A stretch of 64,000 nt of DNA. Origin: Oscillospiraceae bacterium (lineage in GTDB: Bacteria > Bacillota > Clostridia > Oscillospirales > Oscillospiraceae). How positions within the stretch are numbered: position 1 is the first letter of the stretch; every line of letters starts with the position of its first letter. Both the position numbers and the translations under genes were made by a program. A model generated the notes under the pieces. That model was not told the DNA's origin. It saw nothing but the letters and a program-made list of their open reading frames with translations, and did no database searches. This document shows positions 1 through 15,154 of the stretch, piece after piece. The stretch is from assembly GCA_020025575.1 (NCBI GenBank), contig JAHHRW010000010.1:250-64249 (forward strand). Direction: 5' to 3'.

Positions 1-290
1 ACAAGGATGTAGATGCTCATAAGGCTGAATTGCAGGCAATATCTTTCCCTAGATTAGATGAAGACTATTCCCGTTTTATGGACTTGGATTCTGAACTAGT
101 GAAAGAAATTCAGAATCAGATAGAGAATTGTCAAAAGCTGATAGAGCAATATAAAGTGGCCATTCAACAGAAGTTGAATAGCATTTACAATCCGGTAAAT
201 ATGGCTCCGATAGGCTTGGAGAGTGGTATCCAGCAGCTAAATTTGCTTTTAAATAAACTTGAACTAATAGCGGCAGAAATTTGTAGATGC
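1..290 (+). CDS. Upstream part, in a different frame, of the AAA_13/PrrC-RloC-like ATPase gene; open to the window edge
   Basis: The frame is open from nt 3 (KDVDAHKAELQAISFPRLDED...LNKLELIAAEI) and is coiled-coil-like. It stops making sense near nt 282, where the +1 frame (ORF 292-1818) continues the same kind of sequence. Confidence 0.45.
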
Positions 291-291
291 G

Positions 292-1818
292 ATGCAACAA
301 CGAAAAGCAATCTTGCAAGAGTTGCTTTTGATCAACAAAAAAATTGCACACCTGCAAATAGAACAAGCATATCGAGATTTCCAGAAGCGGCAGCGCGCAA
401 TGAGATCAGCGGAAACCGAATTGCAAATTAAGCAGAAAAAGGTAGGAGAAACCGCAGAGCACTTAAAAAGCCTCAAAGAGAAAAAGTCAAATGTGGGGTT
501 GGCTATTGAAAGCATAAACAATGCACTTGACTATGTGTTCTTTTCGCATGGTCGGCTTTCAATTGAGTTGAAAAATGATAAGTACTACTTGAAGTCAAGT
601 GGAAAAGATGTCAAACCCAAAAATGTGTCCATAGGTGAGAGAAATATTATTGCCTTGTGCTATTTCTTCACCCAGATATTATCAAACCAGGATATTAAAA
701 AACTATATCAGGATGAAGAATTAATAGTGATTGACGACCCAATTTCTAGCTTTGATTTTGAGAACAAAGTCGGGATAAGCTCCTTTCTGAGATACCAGAC
801 GCATAAAATTATTAAAGGTAATGCCAAAAGCAAAATCCTATTTTTGACGCACGATCTATCTACGTTTTCTGATTTGCAAAAAATAGCTGACGAAATAGAG
901 AAGTCTTTCAAAAAACAGAACGCAGGTGGAGCTATAAAGAGTAAATCCTTCGAACTGAGAGGGCAAATATTGTCAAAGCCTATGAAGTCCATTAATGAAT
1001 ATCGAGATTTGCTACACATGATTTTTAATTATGCAATGGGCAATACCGATGGTTTGGATTTGATAATTGGTAACGCCATGCGGCGCACATTGGAAGCGTT
1101 CTCGACTTTTATTTATGGGACAGGAATTGCGGAAGTCTCTTTTGATCCAAAGGTTATAAAAAGCTTGGGCAAGTATTCTAAATATTTTGAAAATCTTATG
1201 TACCGGCTCGTACTCCATGGAGAAAGCCATTTTGAAACACGCGTTTATGCGATACAAGACGATCTGAATTTTTATCATTTTATTTCGGAAAAAGAAAAAC
1301 AGCGCACCTGCAAAGAGGTTTTGTGTTTTATGTACTGCTTGAATCCGGATCACATCGAATCACATATTCCGGACGCAATCCATGAGATTCAGAAATGGAT
1401 GACAGACATTCGTACAAACGAAGAATTTGATGCAATAGCTAATCCGAAAAAGCGAATTATCCCTCTATACGATATTCCTCTATCTGCCGGCTTAGGTGAG
1501 AACATATTAGATAGCGACATACCATTTGTAGAATATGAAACTGATGTTATGGATGGGGACTTTGCACTTCACGTATCTGGTGATAGCATGGAGCCAGACA
1601 TTCCAAACGGAAGCATTGTTGTTATCAAAAAGCAAAGTGAAATAGCCGACGGTATAAGTAGTGCATTTTTCCTTAACGGAGAAGTCTACTGTAAAAAACT
1701 ACTACATAAAGATGGAAAGGTTTTTCTCTGCTCAGATAATACTGAATACCAGCCTATAGAAATTCATGAGGGAGATACCTTAAAAGCGTACGGGAAGATT
1801 GTCAAAGTGCTCTGTTAG
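292..1818 (+). CDS. ABC-type ATPase (AAA_13, PrrC/RloC-like) C-terminal half fused to a LexA-like S24 serine autopeptidase domain
   Basis: ATPase motifs: SIGERNIIAL (signature-like), LIVIDDP (Walker B), FLTHD (H-loop). Nuclease-like motif: NAMRRTLEAF...LVLHGESH. S24 module: IPLSAGLG (Ala-Gly), GDSMEP (Ser432), YCKKL (Lys469). Walker A must lie upstream of the window. Confidence 0.75.
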   Translation: MQQRKAILQELLLINKKIAHLQIEQAYRDFQKRQRAMRSAETELQIKQKKVGETAEHLKSLKEKKSNVGLAIESINNALDYVFFSHGRLSIELKNDKYYLKSSGKDVKPKNVSIGERNIIALCYFFTQILSNQDIKKLYQDEELIVIDDPISSFDFENKVGISSFLRYQTHKIIKGNAKSKILFLTHDLSTFSDLQKIADEIEKSFKKQNAGGAIKSKSFELRGQILSKPMKSINEYRDLLHMIFNYAMGNTDGLDLIIGNAMRRTLEAFSTFIYGTGIAEVSFDPKVIKSLGKYSKYFENLMYRLVLHGESHFETRVYAIQDDLNFYHFISEKEKQRTCKEVLCFMYCLNPDHIESHIPDAIHEIQKWMTDIRTNEEFDAIANPKKRIIPLYDIPLSAGLGENILDSDIPFVEYETDVMDGDFALHVSGDSMEPDIPNGSIVVIKKQSEIADGISSAFFLNGEVYCKKLLHKDGKVFLCSDNTEYQPIEIHEGDTLKAYGKIVKVLC

Positions 1819-2004
1819 TGCTATAATACTTACAAGCCATTCATTTTTCCACCTCAAGCGTAACGCACGATAGGATGGCACCGATAGATTTTTGATAGCA
1901 AAAATCCGGATAGACCCTAGGATAAGGATAATCTGCATCAAATAAAACAACGTCGTATTAAATCCACTATACAAGAAAGTTTAGAAATGGATCTAACCCG
2001 GCGA

Positions 2005-2074
2005 GTGGGAATAATATAATAAAGCCCGGGAGCCTTGCAAATGCACGGTTTCCGGGCTTTTTGCTTGCAAAATC
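2005..2074. repeat. Direct repeat copy A (70 nt, 63/70 identical to 4854-4923) containing a terminator hairpin
   Basis: Hand alignment of gtgggaataatataataaagcccgggagccttgcaaatgcacggtttccgggctttttgcttgcaaaatc with copy B. Confidence 0.8.
2021..2062 (+). terminator. Rho-independent terminator-like hairpin inside repeat A
   Basis: A 14-bp stem (aaagcccgggagcc / ggtttccgggcttt, two G-U pairs) followed by a T-run. Confidence 0.5.
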
Positions 2075-2321
2075 CTTGCACTTTGTTCGGAATTATCAGA
2101 AAAAGTAACAATATGCGATGTTGAGTAAACCTCGGCAGTGATCGTGGCTCTGACTCCGGGCAGGGCTTTTGTTTATGTATCCGGAAGAAATAACTTATGG
2201 CGCTCTGTGATCAGAAACAGCGAGGCCACCCTTCTGACAAATATCCATTTTATAGGATATATCATGTTGTATCATGAGGTCTAGAAGCACCAAATATCTT
2301 CTAAAATACGGAGGCGAGCAT

Positions 2322-3254
2322 ATGGCAAATATCCGTTGTCCCCATTGTGGCAGCCCTGCTAGGGCGTACGCAAATCGTTGGGAATGTGGTTACTGCGGCG
2401 ACTTTGGTGTTCTGAGCACCAGACAAGCTGCACCGGAACCTACACAAACGCAGAATGTCACTTTGACCCTGAAATTCGTCAGCAAGCTGGATTTTGAAGA
2501 AACCTGGAACGACATGAAGAACGTCATTTCCCAGTATGCCGAAGATCTCCTGCCTCAACTGGGCAATGTGCTGGTTTATGAGATCTCCCACGCATTGGCA
2601 ACTCCTGGTCACACCACCGACAACGAAAAGTTTCATGCATTAGATCGGTTTCTACAGGGGCATGATGACCTGCGAAATGGACCGAATATTCGGGACATCA
2701 TTCATGCCTCCAAGCAGGGGACGGAGCTTTGTGTGGCTCAGGGAAAGCTGACAGAGGACGCTTGCGGTGGATTCTGGCAGCAGCTAATCCGAAAACTCCC
2801 CGCCGGAGATTATCCGGAGGATATCGAGGATCTGTTGCATGGTCTTGGGGCTTTCTATCAGTATTTTGTTTCTGATGACTGGAATGCGGAGTCCTTAATT
2901 CGCTTTCGGGAACTTCGGGATGCCTTCGAATACCACTGGTATCATCATCAGTATTTTTCCCCTGATCTCGGTGCGGCAATCGCAAGGCTTCAAAGGGATG
3001 ATACCGGCTGTATCGATGATGACTGCAGGGATATTTTGGTATCTGCTTATCCGGACCATTTCCGGGATTACACATTGGAAGATATGCAGGACTTCCAGTG
3101 GAACTATCTTTTAGAGGATCTTGCAGCGGATGATCCTGCGCTTGCCAAAAACATGTGGGAAACCATTCTTGTAGCAGCCGGACCCGATTTTACAAAAAAT
3201 CCGGCAGTCGAAGAATACCTTATGGACAATAGCCCCTTTGCAGAAGATGATTGA
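2322..3254 (+). CDS. Hypothetical acidic protein with an N-terminal zinc ribbon (CPHCG...CGYCG)
   Basis: ORF 2274-3254. The ATG at 2322 follows ACGGAGG at about 7 nt. It has two CxxC pairs in the first 30 aa and an acidic C-terminus. I recognise no family. Confidence 0.6.
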   Translation: MANIRCPHCGSPARAYANRWECGYCGDFGVLSTRQAAPEPTQTQNVTLTLKFVSKLDFEETWNDMKNVISQYAEDLLPQLGNVLVYEISHALATPGHTTDNEKFHALDRFLQGHDDLRNGPNIRDIIHASKQGTELCVAQGKLTEDACGGFWQQLIRKLPAGDYPEDIEDLLHGLGAFYQYFVSDDWNAESLIRFRELRDAFEYHWYHHQYFSPDLGAAIARLQRDDTGCIDDDCRDILVSAYPDHFRDYTLEDMQDFQWNYLLEDLAADDPALAKNMWETILVAAGPDFTKNPAVEEYLMDNSPFAEDD

Positions 3255-3303
3255 ATATATGCTGATAAAGGGAATTTGAACAATGAAATTCCGGCAGCTT
3301 TCC

Positions 3304-3891
3304 TTATTTTTCTTCCCCATTTTTGCAGTTGCGTTCCATCATCTGCTTCATGTCAATATCATATACATCCATAAAGTCAAACACCCTGCATGCAAGCGTC
3401 TGAGTAATCTTCTCTCCGGAATAGGTGTCGGTAACGAAATTACCATAGAACGTCAGAACTCTTGTTCTCTCATCCCGCTCAAATCTCGTAATCTGGCTGT
3501 ACTTGATATCATAAGCAAAAATGGAATCATAATCACCAACACGGTCATCATGGTAACTATAAATAAATCCATCCGGCTTAAATGTAATCGTCTCTCTGCG
3601 TCGAAAGCTAAATTCACGATTGAGTGTTACAATGTATACCGTTGCAGGTAACCAGGAAAGGCCGTATGGAGCAACAAAGGTTATCATCAGCAAATACGTC
3701 TCATACCATTTCTGTGTCACGAAAACCATATGCAGCACATTTGCAGTTCCGCACACATATCCAACGATTCGTAGAAACATTGCAATGTAATAGCAGGCCT
3801 TTGGAAAGCCTTTCAGTGTTTTCACATTGTCTTTTGTCAGCCGCTTCAGTGCCTGTTTTCTCTTTCTTTCATTTACCGTATATGTTTGCAT
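3304..3891 (-). CDS. Hypothetical membrane protein with two predicted TM helices and a C-terminal soluble domain
   Basis: AGGAGG lies 6 nt upstream of the ATG at 3891. Hydrophobic stretches are ACYYIAMFLRIVGYVCG and LLMITFVAPYGLSWLPATVYIV. The gene is AT-rich. Confidence 0.6.
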   Translation of the reverse strand: MQTYTVNERKRKQALKRLTKDNVKTLKGFPKACYYIAMFLRIVGYVCGTANVLHMVFVTQKWYETYLLMITFVAPYGLSWLPATVYIVTLNREFSFRRRETITFKPDGFIYSYHDDRVGDYDSIFAYDIKYSQITRFERDERTRVLTFYGNFVTDTYSGEKITQTLACRVFDFMDVYDIDMKQMMERNCKNGEEK

Positions 3892-4098
3892 AAATTACCT
3901 CCTGTAGTCTCCTGTCCATTCAGCCAAATCACTGCGAACAAAACGGAGATTACCCGATATGTTTTTCCTGACATATGGGGCATACCCTCAGATGTAGTTT
4001 TTCTGAAATTGCAAAATCCAATGTATATCAGAATGCAGCAACACCGATCACAGCTCCATAAACACCACAACGCTTTACGGAATTGCATTGCTGTCCTG

Positions 4099-4126
4099 AT
4101 TATAGCACAATACTGTCCGTTTGTAA
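4099..4126 (-). promoter_or_regulatory. Sigma-A-type promoter candidate for gene 3304-3891
   Basis: On the minus strand: TTACAA, 16 nt, then TGcTATAAT (extended -10). This implies a leader of about 200 nt. Confidence 0.4.
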
Positions 4127-4193
4127 TTCAAATATTTATAAAATAAACAGGCGGAATGTCCCTCTCCCCCCATCCTTGAAGTGACCCCAAGAA

Positions 4194-4718
4194 GTGAGAC
4201 AATACCTATTCACGCAACAGTTATCCTCTTTTTATTCATTTACCGATACACTCAAAGGAAGTAATATTCTGATTCAGAATAAGATTGTTGACTGCGAGGT
4301 AGTTTCAGCGGATAGATGGCTATCAAAGGAAACTGGATATCCAGAGGGTACAAAATTTCATAAACTGTTGCGATTACGATCGGCTAAAACATATCCTCTG
4401 ATGTTAGAAACGACCTATTTACCTCAGGCACGTTTCTGGAAACTGGATACCGAAATACTTTCTAATGGATCCCCGTACGAGTTTCTCAGAAACAGATATG
4501 ATTTCAATGCTGATCGGGCTACCGAAAAGTTTCAGCCTGTTATCCCTCGTCCAGAGGAAAAAACCTTGTTGCATGTCTCATCGAACACCCCCTGTATGCT
4601 TCCGGAGCGATATAGTTATGAAGGTGATGTGTTGATTGAATACACCAAATCAATCGTGCGCGGTGATAAGTACGCCTTTCGCATTGAATTAACGAAAGAC
4701 GTTGCTCATCCTCTTTAA
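4194..4718 (+). pseudogene. 5'-truncated GntR/HutC-family regulator; only the UTRA effector domain remains
   Basis: The translation begins at the UTRA start (SFYSFTDTLKGSN...ETTYLPQARF...RGDKYAFRIEL). No winged-helix part is present, an in-frame TGA sits at 4182 and there is no RBS. Confidence 0.65.
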
Positions 4719-4853
4719 TTTTTCAGTACACAGCAATTTATTCTCATCTTATCATTTGGGAATAACTAAGCGAGGGAGCGTTGAGCCCTCTCGCTCCCCT
4801 AAAATCACCCCTCAGAGGCCCTAAATCATGGGTTAAACATGTTGAACTTAAGC

Positions 4854-4923
4854 GTAGGAATCATATAATAAAGCCCGGAAACCTTGCAAACCCACGGTTT
4901 CCGGGCTTTTTGCTTGCAAAATG
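4854..4923. repeat. Direct repeat copy B (pairs with 2005-2074)
   Basis: 63/70 identity with copy A. The changes in the hairpin's left arm (gggag to ggaaa) turn G-U pairs into A-U pairs, so the stem still forms. Confidence 0.8.
4870..4911 (+). terminator. Rho-independent terminator-like hairpin inside repeat B
   Basis: A 14-bp perfect stem (aaagcccggaaacc / ggtttccgggcttt) followed by TTTTT. Confidence 0.55.
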
Positions 4924-4967
4924 CTTGGCATTGGCTTATAGGCCAATGCCATCGATAACGCCCTTTG

Positions 4968-4996
4968 TTGACAAAAAAGGAAATTCAGCTTATGAT
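4968..4996 (+). promoter_or_regulatory. Sigma-A promoter candidate for the SARP-like regulator
   Basis: TTGACA (4968-4973), 17 nt, TATGAT (4991-4996). CGGAGG RBS precedes the ATG at 5053. Confidence 0.55.
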
Positions 4997-5052
4997 ATAT
5001 GGACACAAAATAGAAAATTTTTCCATGATTCTATATTTCTTTCGGAGGCGCA

Positions 5053-6258
5053 ATGGAACAGTCCGTGCCGATATTATATGTAAATATGCTTGGTCGCTTT
5101 GCGATGAGCTATGGGGGTCAACAGATCTCCTTTAAAACGCATACTGCAACAAAATCCCTCAAATTATTGCAGATTCTATTATACACATCTGCAGTAAATG
5201 GTGGGATTTCCCGCTCTCAGCTATTGCAAAATCTGTATTATCAGGAAGAACTCTGTGATCTTGCAAACAATCTGCGTGTCACCGTGCATCGTTTGAAAAA
5301 GCTGTTGCTGCAGGCCGGTCTTCCCGAATACGATTATATTCAGATTGACAACGGCATCTATCGCTGGAACAGTCCCATGCCCACAAAAATCGATGCGATA
5401 GAATTTGAACATCTGGTCAAAGCCGCACAGGAAACATCCGATCCGAAAATACAGGCAGACCTTTGCTGTGAGGCTTGTGCCTTATACCGAGGTGTTTTCC
5501 TTCCGGCACTGTCTGAGGATGACTGGGTAATTGTCAACAGCATCCGGTACAAAAAACTCTATGAATACGCCTTTCTCCAACTTTGCGATTATCTGAAACA
5601 CAACCGGGAATATGAAAAGATTTTAGATATTGCCACCACCGCTGTTCAGATCTATCCTTTTGAAGAATGGCAGGCCATCAAAATGGATGCCTTGATGGCA
5701 CTTAACCGCTACAAGGATGCCCAGCAGTACTACGAAGAAACATCCAAAATGTTTTTTGAGGAACTTGGAATCAGCCCCTCGGAAAAGATGATGAATCTGT
5801 TTGAGGAAATGAGCCTGAAAATGGGCAGAACCCATCAGACAACCAAGGACATCAAAGAGGCACTTTCTCTATCTGATTACAAAACCGGTGCGTTTTATTG
5901 CAATTTGCCGAGTTTTCGTGATAATTACCGTCTTATCCGCCGTTTACTTGACCGAATTGATCTTTCCGTGCAGGTGATGATTTGTTCCCTGACTGACTGT
6001 TGCGGGCGTCCTCTGGAAAATAAGGAAAAACTGGAAGTGCTGTCTGAACATCTGCACAAAGCAATTCGCAGCAGCCTTCGTCGTGGAGACTGTTTTACCC
6101 AATACAGTCCAAGCCAGTTTCTGATTCTGGTAATCGGATCAAATCAAGAAAACTGTCAAATGATTTACAAACGGATTTTAAATCATTTTACACAGGAACA
6201 TAAATCCTGGAAGAAGTATATCGAATACAGTGTTTTTTCCGTATCGGAAAATGAATAA
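5053..6258 (+). CDS. SARP-like transcriptional regulator: winged-helix plus BTAD domain, with a C-terminal degenerate GGDEF-like domain
   Basis: The N-terminus (LGRFAMSYGGQQISF..KSLKLLQILL..LRVTVHRLKK) and the BTAD helices (ACALYRGVFLP..EEWQAIKMDALMAL..YYEETSKMFFEELGISPS) fit SARP. The C-terminus reads RRGDCFTQYSPSQFLILV in register with RxxD-x5-GGDEF. Confidence 0.8.
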   Translation: MEQSVPILYVNMLGRFAMSYGGQQISFKTHTATKSLKLLQILLYTSAVNGGISRSQLLQNLYYQEELCDLANNLRVTVHRLKKLLLQAGLPEYDYIQIDNGIYRWNSPMPTKIDAIEFEHLVKAAQETSDPKIQADLCCEACALYRGVFLPALSEDDWVIVNSIRYKKLYEYAFLQLCDYLKHNREYEKILDIATTAVQIYPFEEWQAIKMDALMALNRYKDAQQYYEETSKMFFEELGISPSEKMMNLFEEMSLKMGRTHQTTKDIKEALSLSDYKTGAFYCNLPSFRDNYRLIRRLLDRIDLSVQVMICSLTDCCGRPLENKEKLEVLSEHLHKAIRSSLRRGDCFTQYSPSQFLILVIGSNQENCQMIYKRILNHFTQEHKSWKKYIEYSVFSVSENE

Positions 6259-6288
6259 ATTTCTGAACCTAGACTTCTTTCTATGCAT

Positions 6289-6326
6289 AAAACCTGAGTT
6301 ATCCACACATGGATAACTCAGGTTTT
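6289..6326. terminator. Bidirectional terminator between the regulator and the pilus operon
   Basis: A 16-bp perfect stem (aaaacctgagttatcc / ggataactcaggtttt) with T-runs on both strands. Confidence 0.7.
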
Positions 6327-6360: not shown

Positions 6361-6978
6361 TCAGACTGTCTTTTCACAGCGAACAGTCAGACGATTCTGC
6401 CCGCCATATGTGCAGGTGAACAGCGTCATATCGTACTCGCCTGACACCATTTCTTCCACTGACGTTGCAGCCAGAATATCCATTGCCACAACTTTATAGG
6501 TGGTTGCGAAGCCATTTACATCGCGGAAATATACCTCATCTCCAACCTCTATTTGGGGCAGCTGACCAAATCCTCGGTCATAATTATGGCCCATCAGGAC
6601 AAGATCATCCCCGCCTACGGACCCTGTATATCTGCATGGCGTAATCCGCAGATTCTCCATGCTCCATTGTGACATAATCGGCATTTCGATTCTCAGCTTT
6701 GGGATCATCAGATAGCCAATATAATCATGCCCGTCCACAGACAGCGTATTCATAACGGTAGAATAGGGATCTGTCAGATGTTCGGCATTCTCAGATGGGT
6801 TCTGCTCGTCGTAAGCGGATTGATTGGACGCAATCTGTTCCATCAGCCTAGGGAGCAATTCCATTGCAGCCTGTTCTGCCGCTGCAGCCTCCTTCTGATT
6901 GTAGGAAAAAAGCGCCAAAGCAGCCAAAACCAGAACCGACCCTAATCCGATTAAAATATTTGATAAGTTATGTTTCAT
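6361..6978 (-). CDS. Sortase-family cysteine transpeptidase (short form, class not assigned)
   Basis: N-terminal TM segment, LVLMGHNY (His), TLFTCTYGG (Cys), RLTVRC (Arg). Its start overlaps the upstream stop (ATGA). Confidence 0.85.
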   Translation of the reverse strand: MKHNLSNILIGLGSVLVLAALALFSYNQKEAAAAEQAAMELLPRLMEQIASNQSAYDEQNPSENAEHLTDPYSTVMNTLSVDGHDYIGYLMIPKLRIEMPIMSQWSMENLRITPCRYTGSVGGDDLVLMGHNYDRGFGQLPQIEVGDEVYFRDVNGFATTYKVVAMDILAATSVEEMVSGEYDMTLFTCTYGGQNRLTVRCEKTV

Positions 6979-7637
6979 TTTCTTTCACCGAATCGAATCA
7001 GCACTCCGCTCCCGATCAGGAGCAGTCCCAGAATCGCAAGCACCGGGACCGGCAGCTTCAGCTGACCAGTCTGCGGAAGAACCGGATCCTTTGGATGATC
7101 CGTGGGGGGAACTGTCGGAGGGGATGCTGTAAGAACGCCCATCTTAGGGGTTGCATTTACATCATACACATAAGCACCATTTTCCCAATTGGGAACAGCA
7201 ATCAAAAACGGGTCAACGCTATTATACCCCGTCGCAGCCTCATGCTGCGCCACAAGATACAATCCCAGTTGATCGACGCCGACTTCATAGCGCACGGTGC
7301 CGTCATAAATTTTTACAGTCTCGCCTGTAATATTTCTTTTTTCGGCATAATCCAGAAGTGATTCTGCAAGCTCCGGAGAATTTTCATCTTCCAGTGTTTT
7401 ACCCCAGTCTGCAAATGCTCCTGAAGGACGAAAATGGTAGTTCCCATTTGTGCTGACAATCTCGCCGACACGGTAAAATGTCAGGGTTCCAGAGGATAGT
7501 TTCTTTCCGTCGTCCTCCAAATGAACCGTAATCGAACCAGAGTCTTCAAAATCCGGCACATCATGCGCCAAAACAGAAACACTCGTCATGCAAAGCAAAA
7601 GGATCACAAAAAGAAAATTTATCATTCGTTTGCGCAT
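6975..7637 (-). CDS. LPXTG-anchored minor (base-type) pilin
   Basis: AAGGAGG RBS before the ATG at 7637. Signal peptide, LYLVAQHEAATGYNSVDPFLIAVP, and LPQTG plus hydrophobic stretch plus RFGERK sorting signal. Confidence 0.8.
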   Translation of the reverse strand: MRKRMINFLFVILLLCMTSVSVLAHDVPDFEDSGSITVHLEDDGKKLSSGTLTFYRVGEIVSTNGNYHFRPSGAFADWGKTLEDENSPELAESLLDYAEKRNITGETVKIYDGTVRYEVGVDQLGLYLVAQHEAATGYNSVDPFLIAVPNWENGAYVYDVNATPKMGVLTASPPTVPPTDHPKDPVLPQTGQLKLPVPVLAILGLLLIGSGVLIRFGERK

Positions 7638-7650
7638 GGTATTTGCCTCC

Positions 7651-8466
7651 TTATTTTTTCTTATGTTTTGGCAGAGATGCCACAATTACAAGCACCAGCA
7701 AAAACGGTGCTGCAATCACAGCTGCCACAAATTTTGAATCCACCAGCACTGCATCTCCAACTACGTGTGTCTGCGAATCCTCTACATAATCAATCCTCTG
7801 CCCCCGAACCAGAAGGCGGTGGGAATTGATCCCATACGGCGTACATGTAACCAGCGTACAGAGATCTTTTCCATCCTCCGGCATTAGAGACTGCACATTA
7901 TCAGGCTCCACAATCAGAATCTGGTCAACCTGATAGGTCAAAACCTCATCCAATACGCGAATGTGAAAAAGATCCCCTTCTACCATTCGGTCCAGATGCG
8001 TCAGCAGCGTCGCACTGGGCAAGCCTCTGTGCCCGGAAAGAACGCTGTGCGTGCCCGCTCCGCCGATTGGAAGACTGGACCACTCCAAGTGGCCCACCGC
8101 AACCTGAAGGACTGCGTGATCTGTTCCATGGTAAATCGGAAGTTTTACATCAATCGAGGGAATTTCAATATATCCCATAATCCCCGTTCCACCCACGTTC
8201 AACAGGGTCTCATACTGGGCCTTTTGCTCATCGGTGGGCATGAACATATTGTCTCTGTGCTGCTGCGCCTGGTTATAGGCCTCTGCGGCATCCCAAAGCT
8301 CCTGATAACGGTCACTTCCCAGATTCTGAACCTGCTCCTGATAGGATGCAATGGCACGTGATTGGTGTCTTGCATTCCAGAAATCACTGACAGTTGGATA
8401 CAGAAGTAAGGACATGCCAATCAAAAATATGCAAACCAGAAGAATATTGTATAGTCTCTTTTTCAT
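7651..8466 (-). CDS. Class C (pilin-polymerising) sortase
   Basis: TLVTCTPYGINSHRLLVRGQR, SGHRG, and both N- and C-terminal TM segments. RBS GGAGAT precedes the ATG at 8466. Confidence 0.9.
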   Translation of the reverse strand: MKKRLYNILLVCIFLIGMSLLLYPTVSDFWNARHQSRAIASYQEQVQNLGSDRYQELWDAAEAYNQAQQHRDNMFMPTDEQKAQYETLLNVGGTGIMGYIEIPSIDVKLPIYHGTDHAVLQVAVGHLEWSSLPIGGAGTHSVLSGHRGLPSATLLTHLDRMVEGDLFHIRVLDEVLTYQVDQILIVEPDNVQSLMPEDGKDLCTLVTCTPYGINSHRLLVRGQRIDYVEDSQTHVVGDAVLVDSKFVAAVIAAPFLLVLVIVASLPKHKKK

Positions 8467-8539
8467 TGGAATCTCCTTACGCCTGCCCCTTGGGGAGATG
8501 ACTCTCCCCAAGGCCGCAAACTTGCAATAAATATGGATC

Positions 8540-10006
8540 TTATGCGTTGCCGGGGCTGCGCTTCTTCAGCAGCAGCATTGCGCCTGCTACCAGAATCAGA
8601 ATGCCGCCGAGGGCATAGAACATGGTGGTACCAACGCCACCGGTGCTGGGCAGAACAAGACCGGGATGGTTCACAACAGTTGCCTCCAGTGTGCCAGCGG
8701 TATTGTTTCCAGTGAATACAACATTGTCACTTTTCAGTTCAGTCAGCTTGGGTTCATCGGACTGGATATCATGCTCAGCAGTAATGTTGAAAGTGATGGG
8801 CTCCATGGTGTTGTAGCCCTTGGGCGTGGTGGTTTCCTCCAGTCTGTACTCGCCATCATCAATGCCCTTCCAGGTAAAGGTGGTCATCTTGTCACCCTTG
8901 ACTTCTTCACCGACAGGCTGGAAGTCACCATTCTTGTCTTTCTTGTAGAGGGTAAAGCCTGCGCCTTCCAGGGGCTGATCCTCCTCATTAGTCTTGTTGA
9001 CAACTGCCTCATAAGTAAAGACGATAACCTTGTCCTTAGGAGTCTGGCCTACTTTGCCTGTGCCGCTGGGATTTGGGTTGTTGGAGTATTCCAGATAAAC
9101 TTCGTTGGGGTTGCCGGTGGAGCCTACAACTGCCTGCTCATTCAGCTTGGCGGTATAATTCACAGTAATAACAGAACCATTGGTTGCATTGAAAGCTTTG
9201 ACATCGTCACAGGTAATTGTCAGAGTATTACCTGTAGAACCGGGTCCAATTTCAAAGTGTCCTGTAACATCTGTACCATTGAACATGACCTGTGCATCCT
9301 TATTATAGGTCAGGCCGGCAGAGAGCGTGTCGTGGAAAACAATCTTGTAAGATTTGTAGCTGGAAACATTGTCTGCAAGGGTTGCAGTGAGCTGGAAGGG
9401 AACATCGTCGCCGATGTCGTAGTCTGCAGAATCCTGCCAACCGGTGGTAACATTGGTGGAATCATTGGTATCCTGGACCTTCTTCTCAACCTGAGGGACG
9501 CTGGACTTGGGCGTAGCAGATACATTGCCGACAACTTCCATGATGTAGGAAGTGTAAGCATCATTTCCGGAAACGGATTTATCCTTGTCCTTAATCAGAT
9601 AGTAACCGGCTTCCAGATCGCTGATGGTGTAGCTGCCTTCACCTGCAACACTGGGCTTTGCATTTTCCCCATTCAGAAAAGTTTCAAGTTCATTTGCAAA
9701 TGTGCGGGCAGCATCAGAATCGGTGAGTTCTTTTGCTTTGTCAGCTGCCTTACCGAACTTCGTCTCGGCAGCGGTAGTAACACCAGTACCCCACTTGATA
9801 TCAGACAGGACCTTCTCCTGATCTTCATTTTCAAACAGCGTTGCTGCAAAAATCTGATAAGCCTCATAGGTGTGGCCAGGCTGGGCATTCTCGATGGTAA
9901 TGGAGAACTTGGGGGGCTCCGCAGCCGGCATTTCGGCTGCATGGGCAACGATGCCCAGGGTGAAAACCATGGTGAAGACCATGATCATGCTAAGAAAACG
10001 TTTCAT
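8540..10006 (-). CDS. LPXTG-anchored major pilin (isopeptide/Cna-B-type backbone subunit)
   Basis: Signal peptide, E-box-like YRLEETTTPKGY, and LPSTGG plus TM plus KKRSPGNA. The alternative start at 10024 has no RBS; 10006 follows AAAGGAAAG. Confidence 0.85.
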   Translation of the reverse strand: MKRFLSMIMVFTMVFTLGIVAHAAEMPAAEPPKFSITIENAQPGHTYEAYQIFAATLFENEDQEKVLSDIKWGTGVTTAAETKFGKAADKAKELTDSDAARTFANELETFLNGENAKPSVAGEGSYTISDLEAGYYLIKDKDKSVSGNDAYTSYIMEVVGNVSATPKSSVPQVEKKVQDTNDSTNVTTGWQDSADYDIGDDVPFQLTATLADNVSSYKSYKIVFHDTLSAGLTYNKDAQVMFNGTDVTGHFEIGPGSTGNTLTITCDDVKAFNATNGSVITVNYTAKLNEQAVVGSTGNPNEVYLEYSNNPNPSGTGKVGQTPKDKVIVFTYEAVVNKTNEEDQPLEGAGFTLYKKDKNGDFQPVGEEVKGDKMTTFTWKGIDDGEYRLEETTTPKGYNTMEPITFNITAEHDIQSDEPKLTELKSDNVVFTGNNTAGTLEATVVNHPGLVLPSTGGVGTTMFYALGGILILVAGAMLLLKKRSPGNA

Positions 10007-10051
10007 ATCTTTCTTTCCTTTCATCTTATAAATTTCGTGTTGCTACACACA

Positions 10052-13000
10052 TTATTGACTGCACTTTCTTTTCTTGGAGTGGCAATACGCCATCCACATT
10101 GCGCTGCACATGAGAACCAAACCTGCAAGGACATACGGTTCTGTACCGATTCCGCCGGTTTCAGGCAGGCTATCGATGCACAGCTTGTTGGTAATTGTGA
10201 TCGTAAATCCATCCGTCACCGCATGAACCTCCATACCGGAATCAGACTTGTAGGCAACCTGGAACGGCGTTCGGTTCACATACCCCATGGTACCCGGCAG
10301 AATTGGATTGGAATCTTCGTCCAGCTCATACACATAGTATTTCTCTCCCAGATTCAGATCCACAAAAGTGCCCTTCTGATTGGCTGTCGTCTCTGTAAAT
10401 TTCAGCGTAACGATCTGAAGAGGCTTACCCGTTCCCTCTGGATTGTCAAACAGACCAAAGCGGTACTCTCCGGGAATTGGATTGATCGCCGTTCCGTCCA
10501 CATTCTGGAATTGTTTCTCTACCGTAACCTCACCCCTGCTGTTGGGTGCTTTGAAGACATGGATTGCAGAGGCATAGTGAACATGGACACCCTCGGGATA
10601 AGGGGGATATTGGTCGTCCACTTTTTTAGCAACGATGAAGTCGTACGGATCTGCGTCTAAGACATATCCTTCCGGTGCGCGGGTTTCCTGAATACGATAG
10701 ACCGTATTGTATTTCATCGGTTTATCAGAACGATTGTCGGTACCGAAGGTCAGTGTCCCATCACTCCCCGTTGTACCAGTCCAAATTTCCCCATTCCCCT
10801 GGAAGACGCCATTTTCCATGGTGCCCTCTTCCATTTGGAATTGCGCACCGGGAAGGTAATGTGTAATATCGTTTTTATCGTATTTCAGAATCTGAACCTT
10901 AGGTGTTCCGTCGCCTCCGGCCGTGCCGCCAATCGTATAGTGGAAGTTCTCAATGACAACACTGTCACCGCCATTCTGGGAATAGCCCATCCAGTAAGCA
11001 TTGTTTGAAAGCGTAATATGCGTATCCGGAACCGCATGAATGTGGGTGATATAGGTGATTGTCAGCGGCTGATTATCCGGAACCGGAATCATCAGGGTCT
11101 GATTATCGTATGCAGGCTTAACAGGCACTGTCTCATTTGTCCGGGAATTCACGACCCGAATGCTCTCAACGTCCAAACTCAGCGTCTGACTCATCTCATC
11201 CACCAACGTTATGGTATCTCCACCCTTGAGCAAGTCCTCTCCATTGGGATTGACTGCAATTGTAAAGTGGATGGAATTTCCCACTGTGGCAGAAGTTTTA
11301 TCAATAGTCTTGACGGACACCTTGACACCGCTGGACGAGGAATCCATCTGCGTTCCGTCTGTATGCTGAAGGTACACCTGATTGACAAATTCTTTTTCGA
11401 TTCCGCCCTGAAGAACCTCTGGGTCGGTCACGCGGCACACAATTTGAAAGTCCACAGCATAGACATCCATCTCATGTCCTGCCACCAGATTCTCTACTTC
11501 CCACAGCACCTGATCTCCATTGGTGTAGTAGTAGCTGGTCCTGTTTCCCAAATTGGAATCCAGCTCTGCCTGAACAGAATGTTCTGTCCAGCCGGGGCCA
11601 AGCGCTCGCTGATAGTCCGGAATCTGAGCCATCTGAATGCCGCTGTTCCGGGTTTTCTCTCCGATCCACTTCAGCCGGGCAAAGGCAATTTCCATTCCCT
11701 CTGGGATCTGATCCACAACACGGTAACGTCCAGCCAAATCTCCGCCATAATTGACCTTGGATGCCCAAGCAATATAGTGGCCGGGATTTTTAAGCAGAGC
11801 TTTCGGAACATTTCCTAACCTACCCGTCTCAAGATTTGTAATGTTTTTTCCATCAAACTTGAAGAATGTTCCAAATTCTTTCAGAATATTCTGGCCGCCA
11901 TAGAGTACCTTTGTCGCCATTCCATAGTTGACCATCGTATCCTCACTGGAGCCAACATCAAGATAATTGGTATAAAGCTTCTTGGTTCGTGTTCCGCTGG
12001 GCAGAGGATCCGGCTCTGATCTGAGGATCAGGAATACCGATTCGTTGTTCTCAAGGGGGATACTCTTGCGCATTTTCACATAAACCGCGCTATACGTATT
12101 TTCCCGATTAAAGTTCAGTTCGTCCTTATAAGTAATCTCGCAGTAGTCCTCGGTGGAAAGCTGTGACACATGGCCGCTGCCTACCAGAGACTGTACATCT
12201 GCATAATCATTGAACCGAACGCCATCCGGGAGATTCCCTTTATAGATTCCTACGAAGGAGTCGCTGCGGAAATAAATGTTTCCCCGCTCATGGTGTGCAC
12301 CTTCGGTTTTTACGAAATCCTTGATCACAGTTCCCTCATGAAGTTGACTGCCATCAATCTGAATCCCCCAATAAATTGCGCCGTTTGACCAAACGCCTGT
12401 GGATACATTTGGTTTTTGGTAATACCATTCCTTCTTTACGGCTTCGATGGCGTATCCGCCCTGAATGCTGATCTCAGCCTCGGAACTAAAACCACCGATC
12501 TGGAATTTCTCTCCGTCTTTAACAACTGTGCCGACAATATTCGCAGTGTTACTGACGTTCACCTTGTTAATCGTCCCGACATTCACAGCGGATGCGTAGT
12601 AGGTAAATTGATAAGCATAGGTATTATCAGCAAATCCAATATCCGAAAGACGGAGCTGAAAGGCATTCATTCCACCGATCTTGACCCAGTGGGTTTCAAC
12701 CAATGCCCCCAGGGGATCGCTGCCCTCACCTTTGGTGTTAAAGGCATCTACCCGGAGATATCCAGTGTACTGGATATAGTTTTTGCTCAAAGTGTCCTTG
12801 ATCACAGCCTCGGTAATATCCCAATCCCCCAAATGATTAAAGGTAATCGTATAGGGATAGCTGCCGGCAGGAACATTGAAATTCTGGGGTGGATTCGACT
12901 CTGCCACGATCGTACCGCTTGTGGCATCGTATACATTATTCTGAGGAAGATCTACCGTCAGGGCTTCACCCAGCGGATCAGATACATTTTTCTTGATCCA

Positions 13001-15154
13001 GTTCTTATAGCCGAGGTCACAATTATCATTGAAACCCTGGATATAGTCCTTTCCAGGCATCTGCGCATTGTCCGCAGTTGCAACGACTCTGTTTTTCACT
13101 GTTAACAGATCCACATTGGCTGCGCCGAATGCTTTTGCATCCACAATCACATCGTACTGCATACAATACGCTTCTCCGGGAGCCATATCCCCCACGGATA
13201 CGGTGAATTCCTGCCCGTCTTTCGTGTATTGAAGTTTTGGGAAGGAACCATCCGATTTATTCAGTTCCATGGGCGTTCCTTCTGCCTGCTTGGAGTGATA
13301 CAGTTTGAAGGATGCCTCATCATAGCGGATATGAGGCAGTGCCTTTTCATTGGTGATCTTCAGACTGTCCTTCACCTGCACCTCACCGAGAACATGGTTA
13401 TTGCTGCTCGGTGCCTCAAACCATACGGTGTAAGTGATCTTATGGCTGCCATCCTCCGGATTCCGCACCGGGGAACTATGAGATTTCCTCATATCCAGAT
13501 CTACCTGGGGGGTGAAATCTGCAACAGCATCATTCTTTTTATAGGTCTTGCTGTAAACCTTCGCTCTGTTTCGCAGCGGTTCATTGGTAATTTTATCTTC
13601 GTGTTGATCCGACAGCTTGACACGATAGGTCAAAGTGCGCTGCTCATTGGCATTCATATTGCCGATCTTCCAGACGAGACTGCCCGATTTCGCAATATCT
13701 GTTCCATTTTCAGGCGGAATGGGCTGGCTTTCCGTGGGAATACCGCCCTGATATATCCAGCCATGCTCCCTTCCGTCCTGGATTCCCTCTCTGGGAATCC
13801 CCTCCCCGCTCAATCGGGTGGGGATCGGCGTAACGCCCACATATTCCGCATACTCGCCGTTATTTTCAAAATAGTCCACTACCTTTACATCCGGACTGCC
13901 GTCTTCGCCGGCTGTAACCGTCAGCGTATACTCCAGATAGTGAACATCGTTCTCTGAAATTACAGTCTTGGAAACAGACTTCGAGATTTCAAGTTGGCCG
14001 AATTTTGCAATTGAATCGGTATCAAAAGACGGTGTGATATGTACATCCCCAAACACAATGTCCAATGCCCCGTCGTCTGTGGGCACTTCAGAAAGATCGA
14101 TTTCACTTTGTACATAGAACGTTCCGTTCAGGACTCCGTTATTTGTGTCCTGCAAATGCTCCAGCCAGGACTGCTCAAACGTCAGTGTCAACATATGCCC
14201 CGAACTGGTGATGGAGCCAACTGTTGCATGATTTTCGTCTTTGATCTCACCCTGAGCCACAGGGTTGCGCATAATCTTCGGAACCTCAAAACTCAGCTGG
14301 CACCCGCTTGCAATCAATTTAGAAATGGGAACATGCTCGTATTCAATATCCAACCGCAATTTTGCATCGCCGGGAATGTTCACACCTTCCTGCATGTCCT
14401 GCCATTCGGCACCCGAATCACTTGCTTTATCCTTATACCGGAGCCTTGCTTTTTCTACGTATTCGTTCACATCAATCGGAGTCTTTTCTCCCACCAAATC
14501 CGCAGTTTCTTCGTCAGCTGTTTCCACAGGTTCCGCATCCATGATTTCAGATACTGTTTTCTCCGGTTTTGCATCCGTGATTTCAGGTACTGTTTCCTCA
14601 GGTTCCGCATCTGCGAATTCAGAAACGTTTTCCCCGAGAATGACCTGCTCATCGGGAGCCGCAGCCATTGTGGCAGGGACCGTGCTCTCTTGCGGGGTCT
14701 CAGTCAATTCATCCGGTCTGGCCTCAGATTGCTGATTTTCTGTAGCCTGGGTCTGAGGCACAGCGGTGGGCTCTTGTGTCTGCTCAGTCTCCGTTGGAAT
14801 TTCTTCCTGTATTTTTCTGCACGCATCCGCGTGGATATGTTCAGGAATCTGGCAAATCAGCACCTTCTCCGTTTCCTCAACCGCCACCACTTGGGTATCT
14901 TCGGGCACTGTGTTTTGCATCAGCTCTCCATTATCCGCAGGCAGATTTTCCTTTTCCTGCTGATTGCTGGAAAGCTGCGCATAACAGGTATCCGTGTGCT
15001 GGTGTTCCTCCAGACCGCACTTGCTGTCCATTGCAATTGCCGGCAGGGTCAGCGCGCAGATCGTCGAAACCGCTACAACGCACGAAAGCCCCGCTACAAT
15101 CGTCTTCCATGTATATTGATGATTATGATTCTTCCATTTACGCATGGATGTCAC
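10052..15154 (-). CDS. Giant (1700 aa) LPXTG surface adhesin, likely the pilus tip subunit
   Basis: GTG start, N-terminal TM/signal segment, E/P/T-rich repeats, C-terminal Cna-B-like modules (YRIQETRAPEGY), and LPETGG plus TM plus KKRK. Confidence 0.85.
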   Translation of the reverse strand: MTSMRKWKNHNHQYTWKTIVAGLSCVVAVSTICALTLPAIAMDSKCGLEEHQHTDTCYAQLSSNQQEKENLPADNGELMQNTVPEDTQVVAVEETEKVLICQIPEHIHADACRKIQEEIPTETEQTQEPTAVPQTQATENQQSEARPDELTETPQESTVPATMAAAPDEQVILGENVSEFADAEPEETVPEITDAKPEKTVSEIMDAEPVETADEETADLVGEKTPIDVNEYVEKARLRYKDKASDSGAEWQDMQEGVNIPGDAKLRLDIEYEHVPISKLIASGCQLSFEVPKIMRNPVAQGEIKDENHATVGSITSSGHMLTLTFEQSWLEHLQDTNNGVLNGTFYVQSEIDLSEVPTDDGALDIVFGDVHITPSFDTDSIAKFGQLEISKSVSKTVISENDVHYLEYTLTVTAGEDGSPDVKVVDYFENNGEYAEYVGVTPIPTRLSGEGIPREGIQDGREHGWIYQGGIPTESQPIPPENGTDIAKSGSLVWKIGNMNANEQRTLTYRVKLSDQHEDKITNEPLRNRAKVYSKTYKKNDAVADFTPQVDLDMRKSHSSPVRNPEDGSHKITYTVWFEAPSSNNHVLGEVQVKDSLKITNEKALPHIRYDEASFKLYHSKQAEGTPMELNKSDGSFPKLQYTKDGQEFTVSVGDMAPGEAYCMQYDVIVDAKAFGAANVDLLTVKNRVVATADNAQMPGKDYIQGFNDNCDLGYKNWIKKNVSDPLGEALTVDLPQNNVYDATSGTIVAESNPPQNFNVPAGSYPYTITFNHLGDWDITEAVIKDTLSKNYIQYTGYLRVDAFNTKGEGSDPLGALVETHWVKIGGMNAFQLRLSDIGFADNTYAYQFTYYASAVNVGTINKVNVSNTANIVGTVVKDGEKFQIGGFSSEAEISIQGGYAIEAVKKEWYYQKPNVSTGVWSNGAIYWGIQIDGSQLHEGTVIKDFVKTEGAHHERGNIYFRSDSFVGIYKGNLPDGVRFNDYADVQSLVGSGHVSQLSTEDYCEITYKDELNFNRENTYSAVYVKMRKSIPLENNESVFLILRSEPDPLPSGTRTKKLYTNYLDVGSSEDTMVNYGMATKVLYGGQNILKEFGTFFKFDGKNITNLETGRLGNVPKALLKNPGHYIAWASKVNYGGDLAGRYRVVDQIPEGMEIAFARLKWIGEKTRNSGIQMAQIPDYQRALGPGWTEHSVQAELDSNLGNRTSYYYTNGDQVLWEVENLVAGHEMDVYAVDFQIVCRVTDPEVLQGGIEKEFVNQVYLQHTDGTQMDSSSSGVKVSVKTIDKTSATVGNSIHFTIAVNPNGEDLLKGGDTITLVDEMSQTLSLDVESIRVVNSRTNETVPVKPAYDNQTLMIPVPDNQPLTITYITHIHAVPDTHITLSNNAYWMGYSQNGGDSVVIENFHYTIGGTAGGDGTPKVQILKYDKNDITHYLPGAQFQMEEGTMENGVFQGNGEIWTGTTGSDGTLTFGTDNRSDKPMKYNTVYRIQETRAPEGYVLDADPYDFIVAKKVDDQYPPYPEGVHVHYASAIHVFKAPNSRGEVTVEKQFQNVDGTAINPIPGEYRFGLFDNPEGTGKPLQIVTLKFTETTANQKGTFVDLNLGEKYYVYELDEDSNPILPGTMGYVNRTPFQVAYKSDSGMEVHAVTDGFTITITNKLCIDSLPETGGIGTEPYVLAGLVLMCSAMWMAYCHSKKRKCSQ
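14529..14636. repeat. Three tandem 36-bp in-frame repeats inside the adhesin gene
   Basis: Units at 14529-14564, 14565-14600 and 14601-14636 encode VSEFADAEPEET / VPEITDAKPEKT / VSEIMDAEPVET. Confidence 0.8.

Follow-up and report, generated by a model that had tools for sequence, protein, structure and literature searches.

The first 1.8 kb of a 64,000-nucleotide stretch of DNA from an Oscillospiraceae bacterium (assembly GCA_020025575.1, contig JAHHRW010000010.1, positions 250 to 64,249; hereafter the window) carry part of a gene, rloC-S24, in which an ATPase-nuclease resembling RloC is joined to a LexA-type S24 self-cleaving domain. A first-pass annotation had proposed this pairing from sequence motifs. 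Indeed, an open reading frame (ORF) of 508 amino acids (aa) in frame 1 of the + strand (292..1818, stop codon 1816-1818) matches the Pfam profile AAA_13 over residues 22-317 (E 1.6e-29, profile positions 410-690 of 713, well over the gathering score) and then Peptidase_S24 (PF00717) over residues 398-504 (E 2.5e-21, 76 bits against a cutoff of 23.3), so that both domains exceed their gathering scores in the profile scan that the annotation had suggested. The ATPase and nuclease motifs also lie where it had placed them: SIGERNIIAL at residue 113, LIVIDDP at 144, FLTHD at 184, NAMRRTLEAF at 261 and LVLHGESH at 306. From its start the ORF encodes the rest of a coiled coil, lobe II of an ATP-binding cassette (ABC) ATPase, a HEPN-like nuclease domain, a linker and the S24 domain.

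The annotation had treated nucleotides (nt) 1-1818 as one protein, which is right for the identity of the protein and wrong for its reading frame. Frame 1, followed over nt 1-1830, carries many stops up to nt 276 and is open from ATG 292 to its stop at 1816-1818. Upstream, it is frame 3 that is open (nt 3-431), reading KDVDAHKAEL...LNKLELIAAEI, and as far as LNKLEL this peptide directly continues the same protein on its upstream side, as it stands in P0010 and other full-length homologues. This part of the gene (3..267, +, frame 3) corresponds to codons 310-398 of an intact 913-codon orthologue, the distal half of the coiled-coil insert, and matches both P0010 and the intact gene L010. Between the two parts stands an extra T (268..268, +; CTAA[T]AGCGG), a +1 frameshift that makes TAA TAG in frame 1 at nt 265-270. 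Around this position the window reads GAACTAATAGCGG and L010 reads GAACTAAAGCGG; in a DNA alignment the T is missing from four related loci (L010, L004, L002 and L001). L010, from a Schaedlerella sp. metagenome-assembled genome (MAG), is the closest orthologue found (93% nt identity). With T268 deleted, 604 codons are restored with no further indel and with 95.2% aa identity to residues 310-913 of the 913-aa L010 protein.

With its one-base insertion at nt 268, the window copy, which the window edge also cuts short, is probably non-functional and is most likely a recently inactivated pseudogene. The alternative to this view is that T268 is an assembly error. We considered separate expression of the 508-aa ORF from ATG 292 and rejected it: no Shine-Dalgarno-like sequence was found upstream of that ATG, and the product would be without Walker A. 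That motif and the CPYC zinc hook are absent from the window because it begins at about codon 310 of the 913-codon gene, the ~309 N-terminal codons that hold them lying beyond its edge. The gene is AT-rich, as first annotated, with a G+C content (GC) of 0.378 over nt 1-1818 and 0.469 in the remaining window, and in every host examined the gene (0.34-0.39) is below its flanks (0.49-0.53). Horizontal acquisition of an AT-rich gene is the best explanation. Megablast searches with nt 1-2300 and 1-6300 returned no near-identical DNA among E. coli genomes, plasmids and phages.

We compared the core of the protein with RloC and PrrC through published residue numbers and motif definitions (PMC1484252, PMC3025547, PMC2610378) and the PADLOC hidden Markov model (HMM) of PrrC, and assessed conservation in two alignments of homologues down to ~35% identity (A1, 39 sequences; A2, 52 sequences). 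In the window, ABC lobe II (628..855, +) holds the signature-like SIGERN (residues 113-118), the Walker B and D-loop sequence VIDDPISSFD (146-155) and the H-loop THD (186-188). The lobe II residues (S518/G520-N523, D553/D554, S557/S558/D560 and H592, in the numbering of the 800-aa homologue P0016) are invariant in A1, as are Walker A from G36 to K42, C285 and C288 of CPYC, the motif S518-x-GERN and, in the C-terminal domain, R671, E675, R712, S719 and H720. Walker A reads GKNGSGKS at residue 36 in the full-length orthologues L001, L010, L013, L014 and L015, and in full-length orthologues CPYC stands at 285-288, a predicted zinc hook near C291 of Geobacillus kaustophilus RloC (GkaRloC). The published definition of RloC combines PrrC-like ABC motifs with a CXXC zinc hook in a Rad50-like coiled-coil insert (C291 in GkaRloC; PMC2610378). 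The signature motif (518) follows Walker A (36) only after some 480 residues, giving a core of ~800 aa, unlike the compact ~400-aa PrrC. Judged by these motifs, the protein is an RloC-type and not a PrrC-type ATPase-nuclease, because it has the CXXC zinc hook in a long helical insert and spans ~800 aa without S24.

Searches and models agree on the overall build. Among 5.8 billion proteins we found 1,499 relatives, most of them AAA_13 proteins of ~790 aa and a minority with an added Peptidase_S24. The AlphaFold2 model of P0016 (predicted local distance difference test, pLDDT, 81) consists of ABC lobe I, a helical insert (residues 112-487) that includes a 107-residue helix, lobe II and an all-alpha C-terminal domain. 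Its best Foldseek matches in the PDB are Lamassu LmuB and Rad50 (E 1.5e-7 to 2e-3 for matches to the ATPase and insert, PtuA included).

The C-terminal domain of the core carries the putative anticodon-nuclease catalytic residues (1081..1230, +): R264 (1081-1083), E268 (1093-1095), R305 (1204-1206), H309, S312 and H313 (1228-1230). The R, E, R and S-H are invariant in both alignments. The first-pass annotation had likened the R-x3-E pair and the following His to the catalytic triad of PrrC; R264, E268 and H313 are real and invariant, and they fit the RloC motif. That motif is Arg-X3-Glu-X36-52-His, often with a Ser before the His (R692, E696 and H737 in GkaRloC; PMC2610378), and the ORF reads R264-x3-E268-x44-S312-H313, its spacing of 44 falling within the range of 36-52. 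Residues essential in E. coli PrrC (D215, D216, S219, D222, T250, H251, R320, E324, R349, N352 and H356; PMC3025547; PMC1484252) also have counterparts here: the DD..SS.D and TH pattern of the family matches D215, D216, S219, D222, T250 and H251, and R305 and H/N309 parallel R349 and N352.

It is distinctly unlikely, in our judgement, that the protein is instead a Rad50/SMC-like ATPase of the AAA_13/PDC-S06 group whose C-terminal domain is not an anticodon nuclease and has some other RNA or DNA target. The best PADLOC family is indeed the uncharacterised candidate PDC-S06 (E values from 1e-23 to 1e-49; 1.5e-23 for the window ORF and 1.2e-49 for P0016, over nearly the whole profile), with PrrC matched far more weakly (4.3e-8 for the window ORF, 7.6e-8 for P0039) and no RloC model among the PADLOC or NCBIfam matches. 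Searches of PDB sequences by phmmer with P0039 and by hmmsearch with a family profile found no solved PrrC or RloC structure, only UmuD/LexA (to the S24 part) and generic P-loop fragments. The AlphaFold2 model of ORF residues 195-395 is all-alpha and mostly helical (pLDDT 82); its top Foldseek match in the PDB, the sacsin HEPN domain 3o10, is not significant (probability 0.84, E 0.43, TM-score 0.35/0.46), nor is the AbiV HEPN domain, ranked 25th. Moreover, the family spacing R305-x7-H313 (R-LVL[H/N]GES-H; R349-x6-H356 in PrrC) lies outside the canonical HEPN Rx4-6H. What speaks against a target other than tRNA is that the motif is exactly that which defines RloC, including the Ser before the His and a CXXC near residue 290 (PMC2610378), and that the alignments to the PrrC HMM (P0039 residues 458-695 to model positions 131-359 of 372) and to AAA_13 (up to profile position 690 of 713) both run through the C-terminal domain. 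The weak match of the model to sacsin is compatible with the atypical HEPN class in which the PrrC and RloC nuclease domains have been placed (PMC3710099).

The remainder of the ORF is a complete S24 module. For an alignment of 49 fusion proteins, the LexA and UmuD sequences of E. coli served as references, and their numbering agrees (LexA A84-G85, S119 and K156; UmuD C24-G25, S60 and K97). The predicted self-cleavage site A399-G400 (1486..1491, +) aligns with LexA A84-G85 and UmuD C24-G25, and S398, A399, G400 and G402 are invariant in all 49 fusions. S432 of the GDSM motif (1585..1587, +), the predicted nucleophile, aligns with LexA S119 and UmuD S60 and is likewise present in 49 of 49. The predicted general base is K468 (1693..1695, +), which aligns with LexA K156 and UmuD K97 and is present in 48; the sole fusion that lacks it, P0010, is ended by a stop codon immediately before the Lys. 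Thus the module, the Ala-Gly site and the Ser stand as first annotated, whereas the Lys is K468 and not K469, a position that varies among the fusions (K in 26, Y in 10, R in 8, and others). The Ser-Lys spacing, claimed to be the 37 residues of LexA, is 36 because of a one-residue deletion after GDSM. The Ala-Gly and the Ser are conserved across fusions down to ~42% identity.

Database matches place this module with LexA and UmuD at the level of the domain. P0039 matches the PDB sequence of UmuD' (E 2e-5), and the NCBIfam matches to LexA and UmuD fall under the equivalog cutoffs, as expected for domain-only similarity. The nearest free-standing relatives are repressors of 230-250 aa from Lachnospiraceae and Oscillospiraceae that join an HTH_3 helix-turn-helix (HTH) domain to S24 (35-45% identity); the S24 part of the fusion has no HTH domain of its own. 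It is preceded by a linker and a strand (1441..1485, +; DAIANPKKRIIPLYDIPLS), and a comparison of C-terminal tails places the ends of the S24-less family members here, at most ~25 residues from the predicted cleavage site.

The fusion is real, as the first-pass annotation had supposed: it recurs in frame in many independent contigs, as full-length proteins of 913-939 aa. More than 40 distinct in-frame sequences come from NCBI, ENA and Logan assemblies, and about a dozen fusion clusters, with intact proteins of 914-939 aa among them, are present in 1.84 billion representatives at 50% identity. The architecture is not a common one. In a set of one genome per species (185,579 species) the RloC-S24 junction occurs at ~8 loci, all in MAGs of gut-associated Clostridia (Schaedlerella, Oscillospiraceae, Erysipelotrichaceae, Ruthenibacterium and Eubacteriales). 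When the shared core is placed in a neighbour-joining tree, proteins with and without S24 are intermixed in one half of the family, which argues for repeated loss or exchange of the S24 module.

An assembly or gene-calling artefact, in which an RloC gene is read through into an adjacent S24 repressor gene, is scarcely conceivable as the source of the fusion. RloC and S24 are called separately in L091 and L009, which would favour an artefact, but relative to fused relatives the separated cases are one-base indels, the S24 part lacks the HTH of a repressor, and the more than 40 distinct in-frame fusions, in ORFs of 913-939 aa without stops, effectively refute it. The indels (L009:5040-5200 and L091:7900-7970) fall in short runs of A, on the junction or immediately ahead of it (A5 to A6, NPKK; A4 to A3, WxKA), and downstream of them the S24 reading frame is otherwise intact. 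Their origin could lie in a recent mutation, an error of sequencing or switching at a slippage-prone site. We set aside programmed frameshifting at the AAAAAG junction: the fused genes need no shift to stay in frame, and the disruptive indels occur at differing sites. We also discarded P0016 as proof of a clean modular loss of S24, since it carries a one-base A-run insertion with the S24 frame intact; P0072 is similar, P0018 is truly S24-less, and the locus L090 is a cleanly S24-less relative.

Twelve distinct loci can be assessed over the full gene, and five of them are intact (L001, L010, L013, L014 and L015). The other seven are disrupted, each at a different position: the window by T268, L002/3 by a frameshift at about residue 165, L004 by a stop before the catalytic Lys, L005 by a stop at codon 281, L006 by a frameshift at about residue 327, L007/8 by a 5' truncation beside a recombinase gene, and L009. 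That S24-fused copies are always disrupted in their N-terminal part was ruled out by the intact genes of 913-939 aa. The high frequency of disrupted copies suggests that the fusion is costly to carry. In a separate rearranged form, P0064 (438 aa, on a 2.5-kb contig), the N-terminus of a Mob_Pre relaxase is joined to the last ~200 residues of RloC-S24 (90% identity), probably through a rearrangement or the insertion of a mobile element.

We propose, with moderate confidence, that in a small lineage of gut Clostridia an RloC-family protein acquired a complete S24 autoprotease at its C-terminal end, and that in the intact orthologues (the window copy being frameshifted) RecA-stimulated self-cleavage of this domain gates the tRNA nuclease. 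LexA-type S24 domains self-cleave on RecA filaments on single-stranded DNA (RecA-ssDNA). In the intact protein the S24 domain would hold or modulate the latent nuclease, and RecA-ssDNA filaments formed upon DNA damage or phage DNA replication would stimulate the Ser-Lys dyad to cut the protein's own Ala-Gly bond. A cut at Ala804-Gly805 (L010 numbering) would shed the last ~109 residues and leave a core sized like an ordinary S24-less RloC; this freed core would cut tRNA anticodon loops, shutting down translation and leading to abortive infection or growth arrest. RloC is a latent anticodon nuclease that is activated by inducers of DNA double-strand breaks in its natural host (PMC3874168; see also PMC3458546), and its ATPase is DNA-dependent (PMC3458546). 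The S24 domain would then be a RecA-based damage sensor added to an enzyme already responsive to breaks.

Several points weigh against this proposal. Self-cleavage, RecA dependence and tRNase activity are predictions from sequence, and the likeness to RloC and PrrC comes from published motifs and an HMM. The closest PADLOC family is a computational candidate only, the PrrC match is weak, and the top structural match of the nuclease domain is not significant, as detailed above. The disruption of seven of the twelve loci fits toxicity and equally fits simple decay. Finally, in LexA and CI cleavage inactivates the protein by parting the functional from the dimerization domain, and some LexA-like proteins cleave without RecA (IrvR, PMC7101444).

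The outcome of cleavage in LexA and CI would equally suit a switch of the reverse polarity, in which S24 dimerization is needed for the active oligomer and RecA-stimulated cleavage turns the nuclease off, sparing the cell from suicide under ordinary SOS damage. We think this unlikely. HEPN RNases are usually dimeric (PMC3710099), and if S24 is required, all of the natural disruptions fit plain loss of function, from the frameshifts that uncouple S24 in L009 and L091 to the stop before the Lys in L004. Most relatives, however, are S24-less proteins of ~790 aa that keep all the catalytic residues, and the core therefore appears to assemble without S24, which is a weak argument against an off-switch. 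Such a switch would also be paradoxical because RloC itself is activated by DNA breaks (PMC3874168).

The S24 domain might, alternatively, not cleave at all and serve as a tether, binding the RecA filament or dimerizing so as to bring the Rad50-like ATPase to damaged or replicating DNA. LexA, UmuD and CI all dock in the groove of the RecA filament (PMC9926225), and the DNA-dependent ATPase of RloC (PMC3458546) would suit a tether. Dispensable catalysis, on the other hand, would not be expected to leave the S24 residues so strictly conserved (Ala-Gly and Ser invariant, and Lys in all but one truncated copy, down to ~42% identity), and we regard a tether as very unlikely. Self-cleavage that activates the nuclease is the reading that we carry forward.

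The same S24 module is found on other defence-type proteins, a pattern that supports the gating proposal. A 488-aa ORF of Lachnospiraceae bacterium A75_68 (L027:9001-9378) joins GmrSD_N/DUF262 (E 4.7e-27) to a C-terminal S24 domain of the same subtype (E 1.9e-25), and P0242, a 641-aa protein of the representative library, has a DACNH sensor and a diadenylate-cyclase-like DAC domain followed by the same module (KKKTINLYDTPLSAGSG...ISGDSMEP...YCKK). These proteins hint at a broader theme of S24-gated effectors and suggest a wider design principle. It is possible, and we put it forward only tentatively, that S24 is a portable RecA-sensing fuse carried on the C-termini of immune effectors of gut Clostridia (RloC, GmrSD_N/DUF262 and DACNH-DAC), one through which DNA damage or intermediates of phage replication would activate the effector directly and post-translationally, with no transcriptional step.

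The neighbourhood of rloC-S24 differs between loci and often includes restriction-modification genes. In L004, L006 and L013 the gene directly upstream, in the same orientation, is hsdR of a type I restriction-modification system, which is not the case in L001, L002, L007 or L014. Genes for Fic, Mrr and a type IIG enzyme are upstream in L005 and L015, an McrBC-like pair is upstream in L091, and integrase or serine recombinase genes adjoin the gene in L006, L007 and L014. No obvious defence neighbours were seen in L001 and L002. The split RloC and S24 genes of L091 belong to a defence island (L091:429-13602) with McrB-like (MrcB_N and AAA_5) and McrC-like (DUF2357/PDDEXK_7) genes, a DUF6788/AAA_14 gene and a large AAA_11/AAA_12 helicase with DUF559/MTES_1575. 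Upstream of the intact gene of GCA_964440115.1, within ~5 kb, are two repair-type genes with DNA_alkylation domains (PF08713; L001:4478-9650), which may be coincidence.

Within the window, the first 6.5 kb have a GC of 0.35-0.45, below that of the rest. The ORFs that follow rloC-S24 are uninformative as to its context. A near-consensus promoter of the sigma-70 type (1799-1827, +; TTGTCA, 17 nt, TATAAT, with an extended -10 TG; 11 of 12 matches) overlaps the stop of the S24 ORF and could drive an unannotated ORF of 326 aa at 2274-3254, for which no family match was found. A further ORF of 174 aa (4194-4718, +) holds only a UTRA effector-binding domain (E 9.7e-31), without a GntR HTH, and is probably a truncated regulator. 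Farther downstream are a BTAD regulator and sortases. The latter belong to a stretch of the - strand (6361-15154) with sortase-domain ORFs at 6361-6978 and 7651-8511, an unassigned ORF between them at 6975-7685 and an adjoining ORF of 1700 aa at 10052-15154, likely a Gram-positive pilus or adhesin locus.

Each component (RloC, PrrC, S24) is well known by itself, and the fusion is apparently undescribed. The first-pass annotation knew of no ATPase/anticodon-nuclease-S24 architecture, and we likewise found none in the literature searched, from which most subscription journals fall outside, or in a HEPN survey that covers the architectures of PrrC and RloC (PMC3710099). Few defence nucleases besides RloC are reported to respond to DNA breaks, and its fusion to S24 is independent, evolution-derived evidence that couples the RloC family to a DNA-damage signal, RecA-ssDNA. 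The single Ala-Gly bond and the Ser/Lys dyad provide an experimental handle, as mutating them could fix the switch in either state. Should self-cleavage gate the nuclease, the SOS signal would lead to abortive infection post-translationally and without a repressor, and the fusion could also be of use in engineering as a compact damage-triggered protein switch. If S24 acts as a fuse, RloC-S24 would be the first case of the SOS co-protease signal wired straight into a tRNA-cleaving suicide enzyme. The window copy is broken, and the value lies in the RloC-S24 family more than in the window locus.

RloC of G. kaustophilus and Acinetobacter baylyi, a wobble-nucleotide-excising anticodon nuclease reportedly described by Davidov & Kaufmann (2008) and Klaiman et al. 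(2012 and 2013), is the closest known system. The two share an ~800-aa core with an N-terminal Walker A, a CXXC near residues 285-291, the ABC signature, Walker B and H-loop, and a C-terminal Arg-X3-Glu-X36-52-(Ser)His; they also share an AT-rich, sporadically distributed gene with occasional linkage to type I restriction-modification. They differ in the C-terminal linker and S24 module (~110-125 aa), which is present in no described RloC. The fusion forms a distinct Clostridia-specific sub-lineage with putative anticodon-nuclease activity, of which the window copy is a frameshifted member.

PrrC, the tRNA-Lys anticodon nuclease of the E. coli EcoprrI locus, has in common with RloC-S24 the DD of Walker B, the SS-x-D of the D-loop, the TH of the H-loop and, in the C-terminal domain, R-x3-E and R-x2/3-N/H-x3-H. 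It is a latent toxin beside type I restriction-modification genes, and hsdR likewise adjoins some RloC-S24 loci. However, PrrC has 396 aa, with neither the coiled-coil/zinc-hook insert nor S24, its gene forms part of the hsd operon, and the phage peptide Stp triggers its activity. No LARP-type tRNA-Lys recognition motif was identified in RloC-S24.

With LexA, UmuD, lambda CI and the HTH-S24 repressors of Firmicutes prophages and integrative and conjugative elements, RloC-S24 shares an S24 domain that appears complete, its Ala-Gly, Ser and Lys aligning with theirs. Here the N-terminal partner is an ATPase-nuclease of ~800 aa in place of a DNA-binding domain or the UmuD arm, and the outcome of cleavage would be enzymatic, not transcriptional as in LexA and CI. 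The best structural matches to the ATPase and helical insert, namely Lamassu LmuB, Rad50/SbcC and PtuA (retron Eco7/Ec78), detect DNA ends or structures and govern the activity of an attached nuclease. That nuclease is supplied as a separate subunit or as another kind of domain (Cap4, Mre11 or HNH), and none of these systems has a HEPN-like anticodon nuclease or an S24 domain. Finally, CapH/CapP of CBASS and ImmR/ImmA also connect DNA damage to the activation of immunity or of mobile elements through proteolysis of a regulator. There, a separate metalloprotease acts on a transcriptional repressor, whereas in RloC-S24 the protease is fused to the effector.

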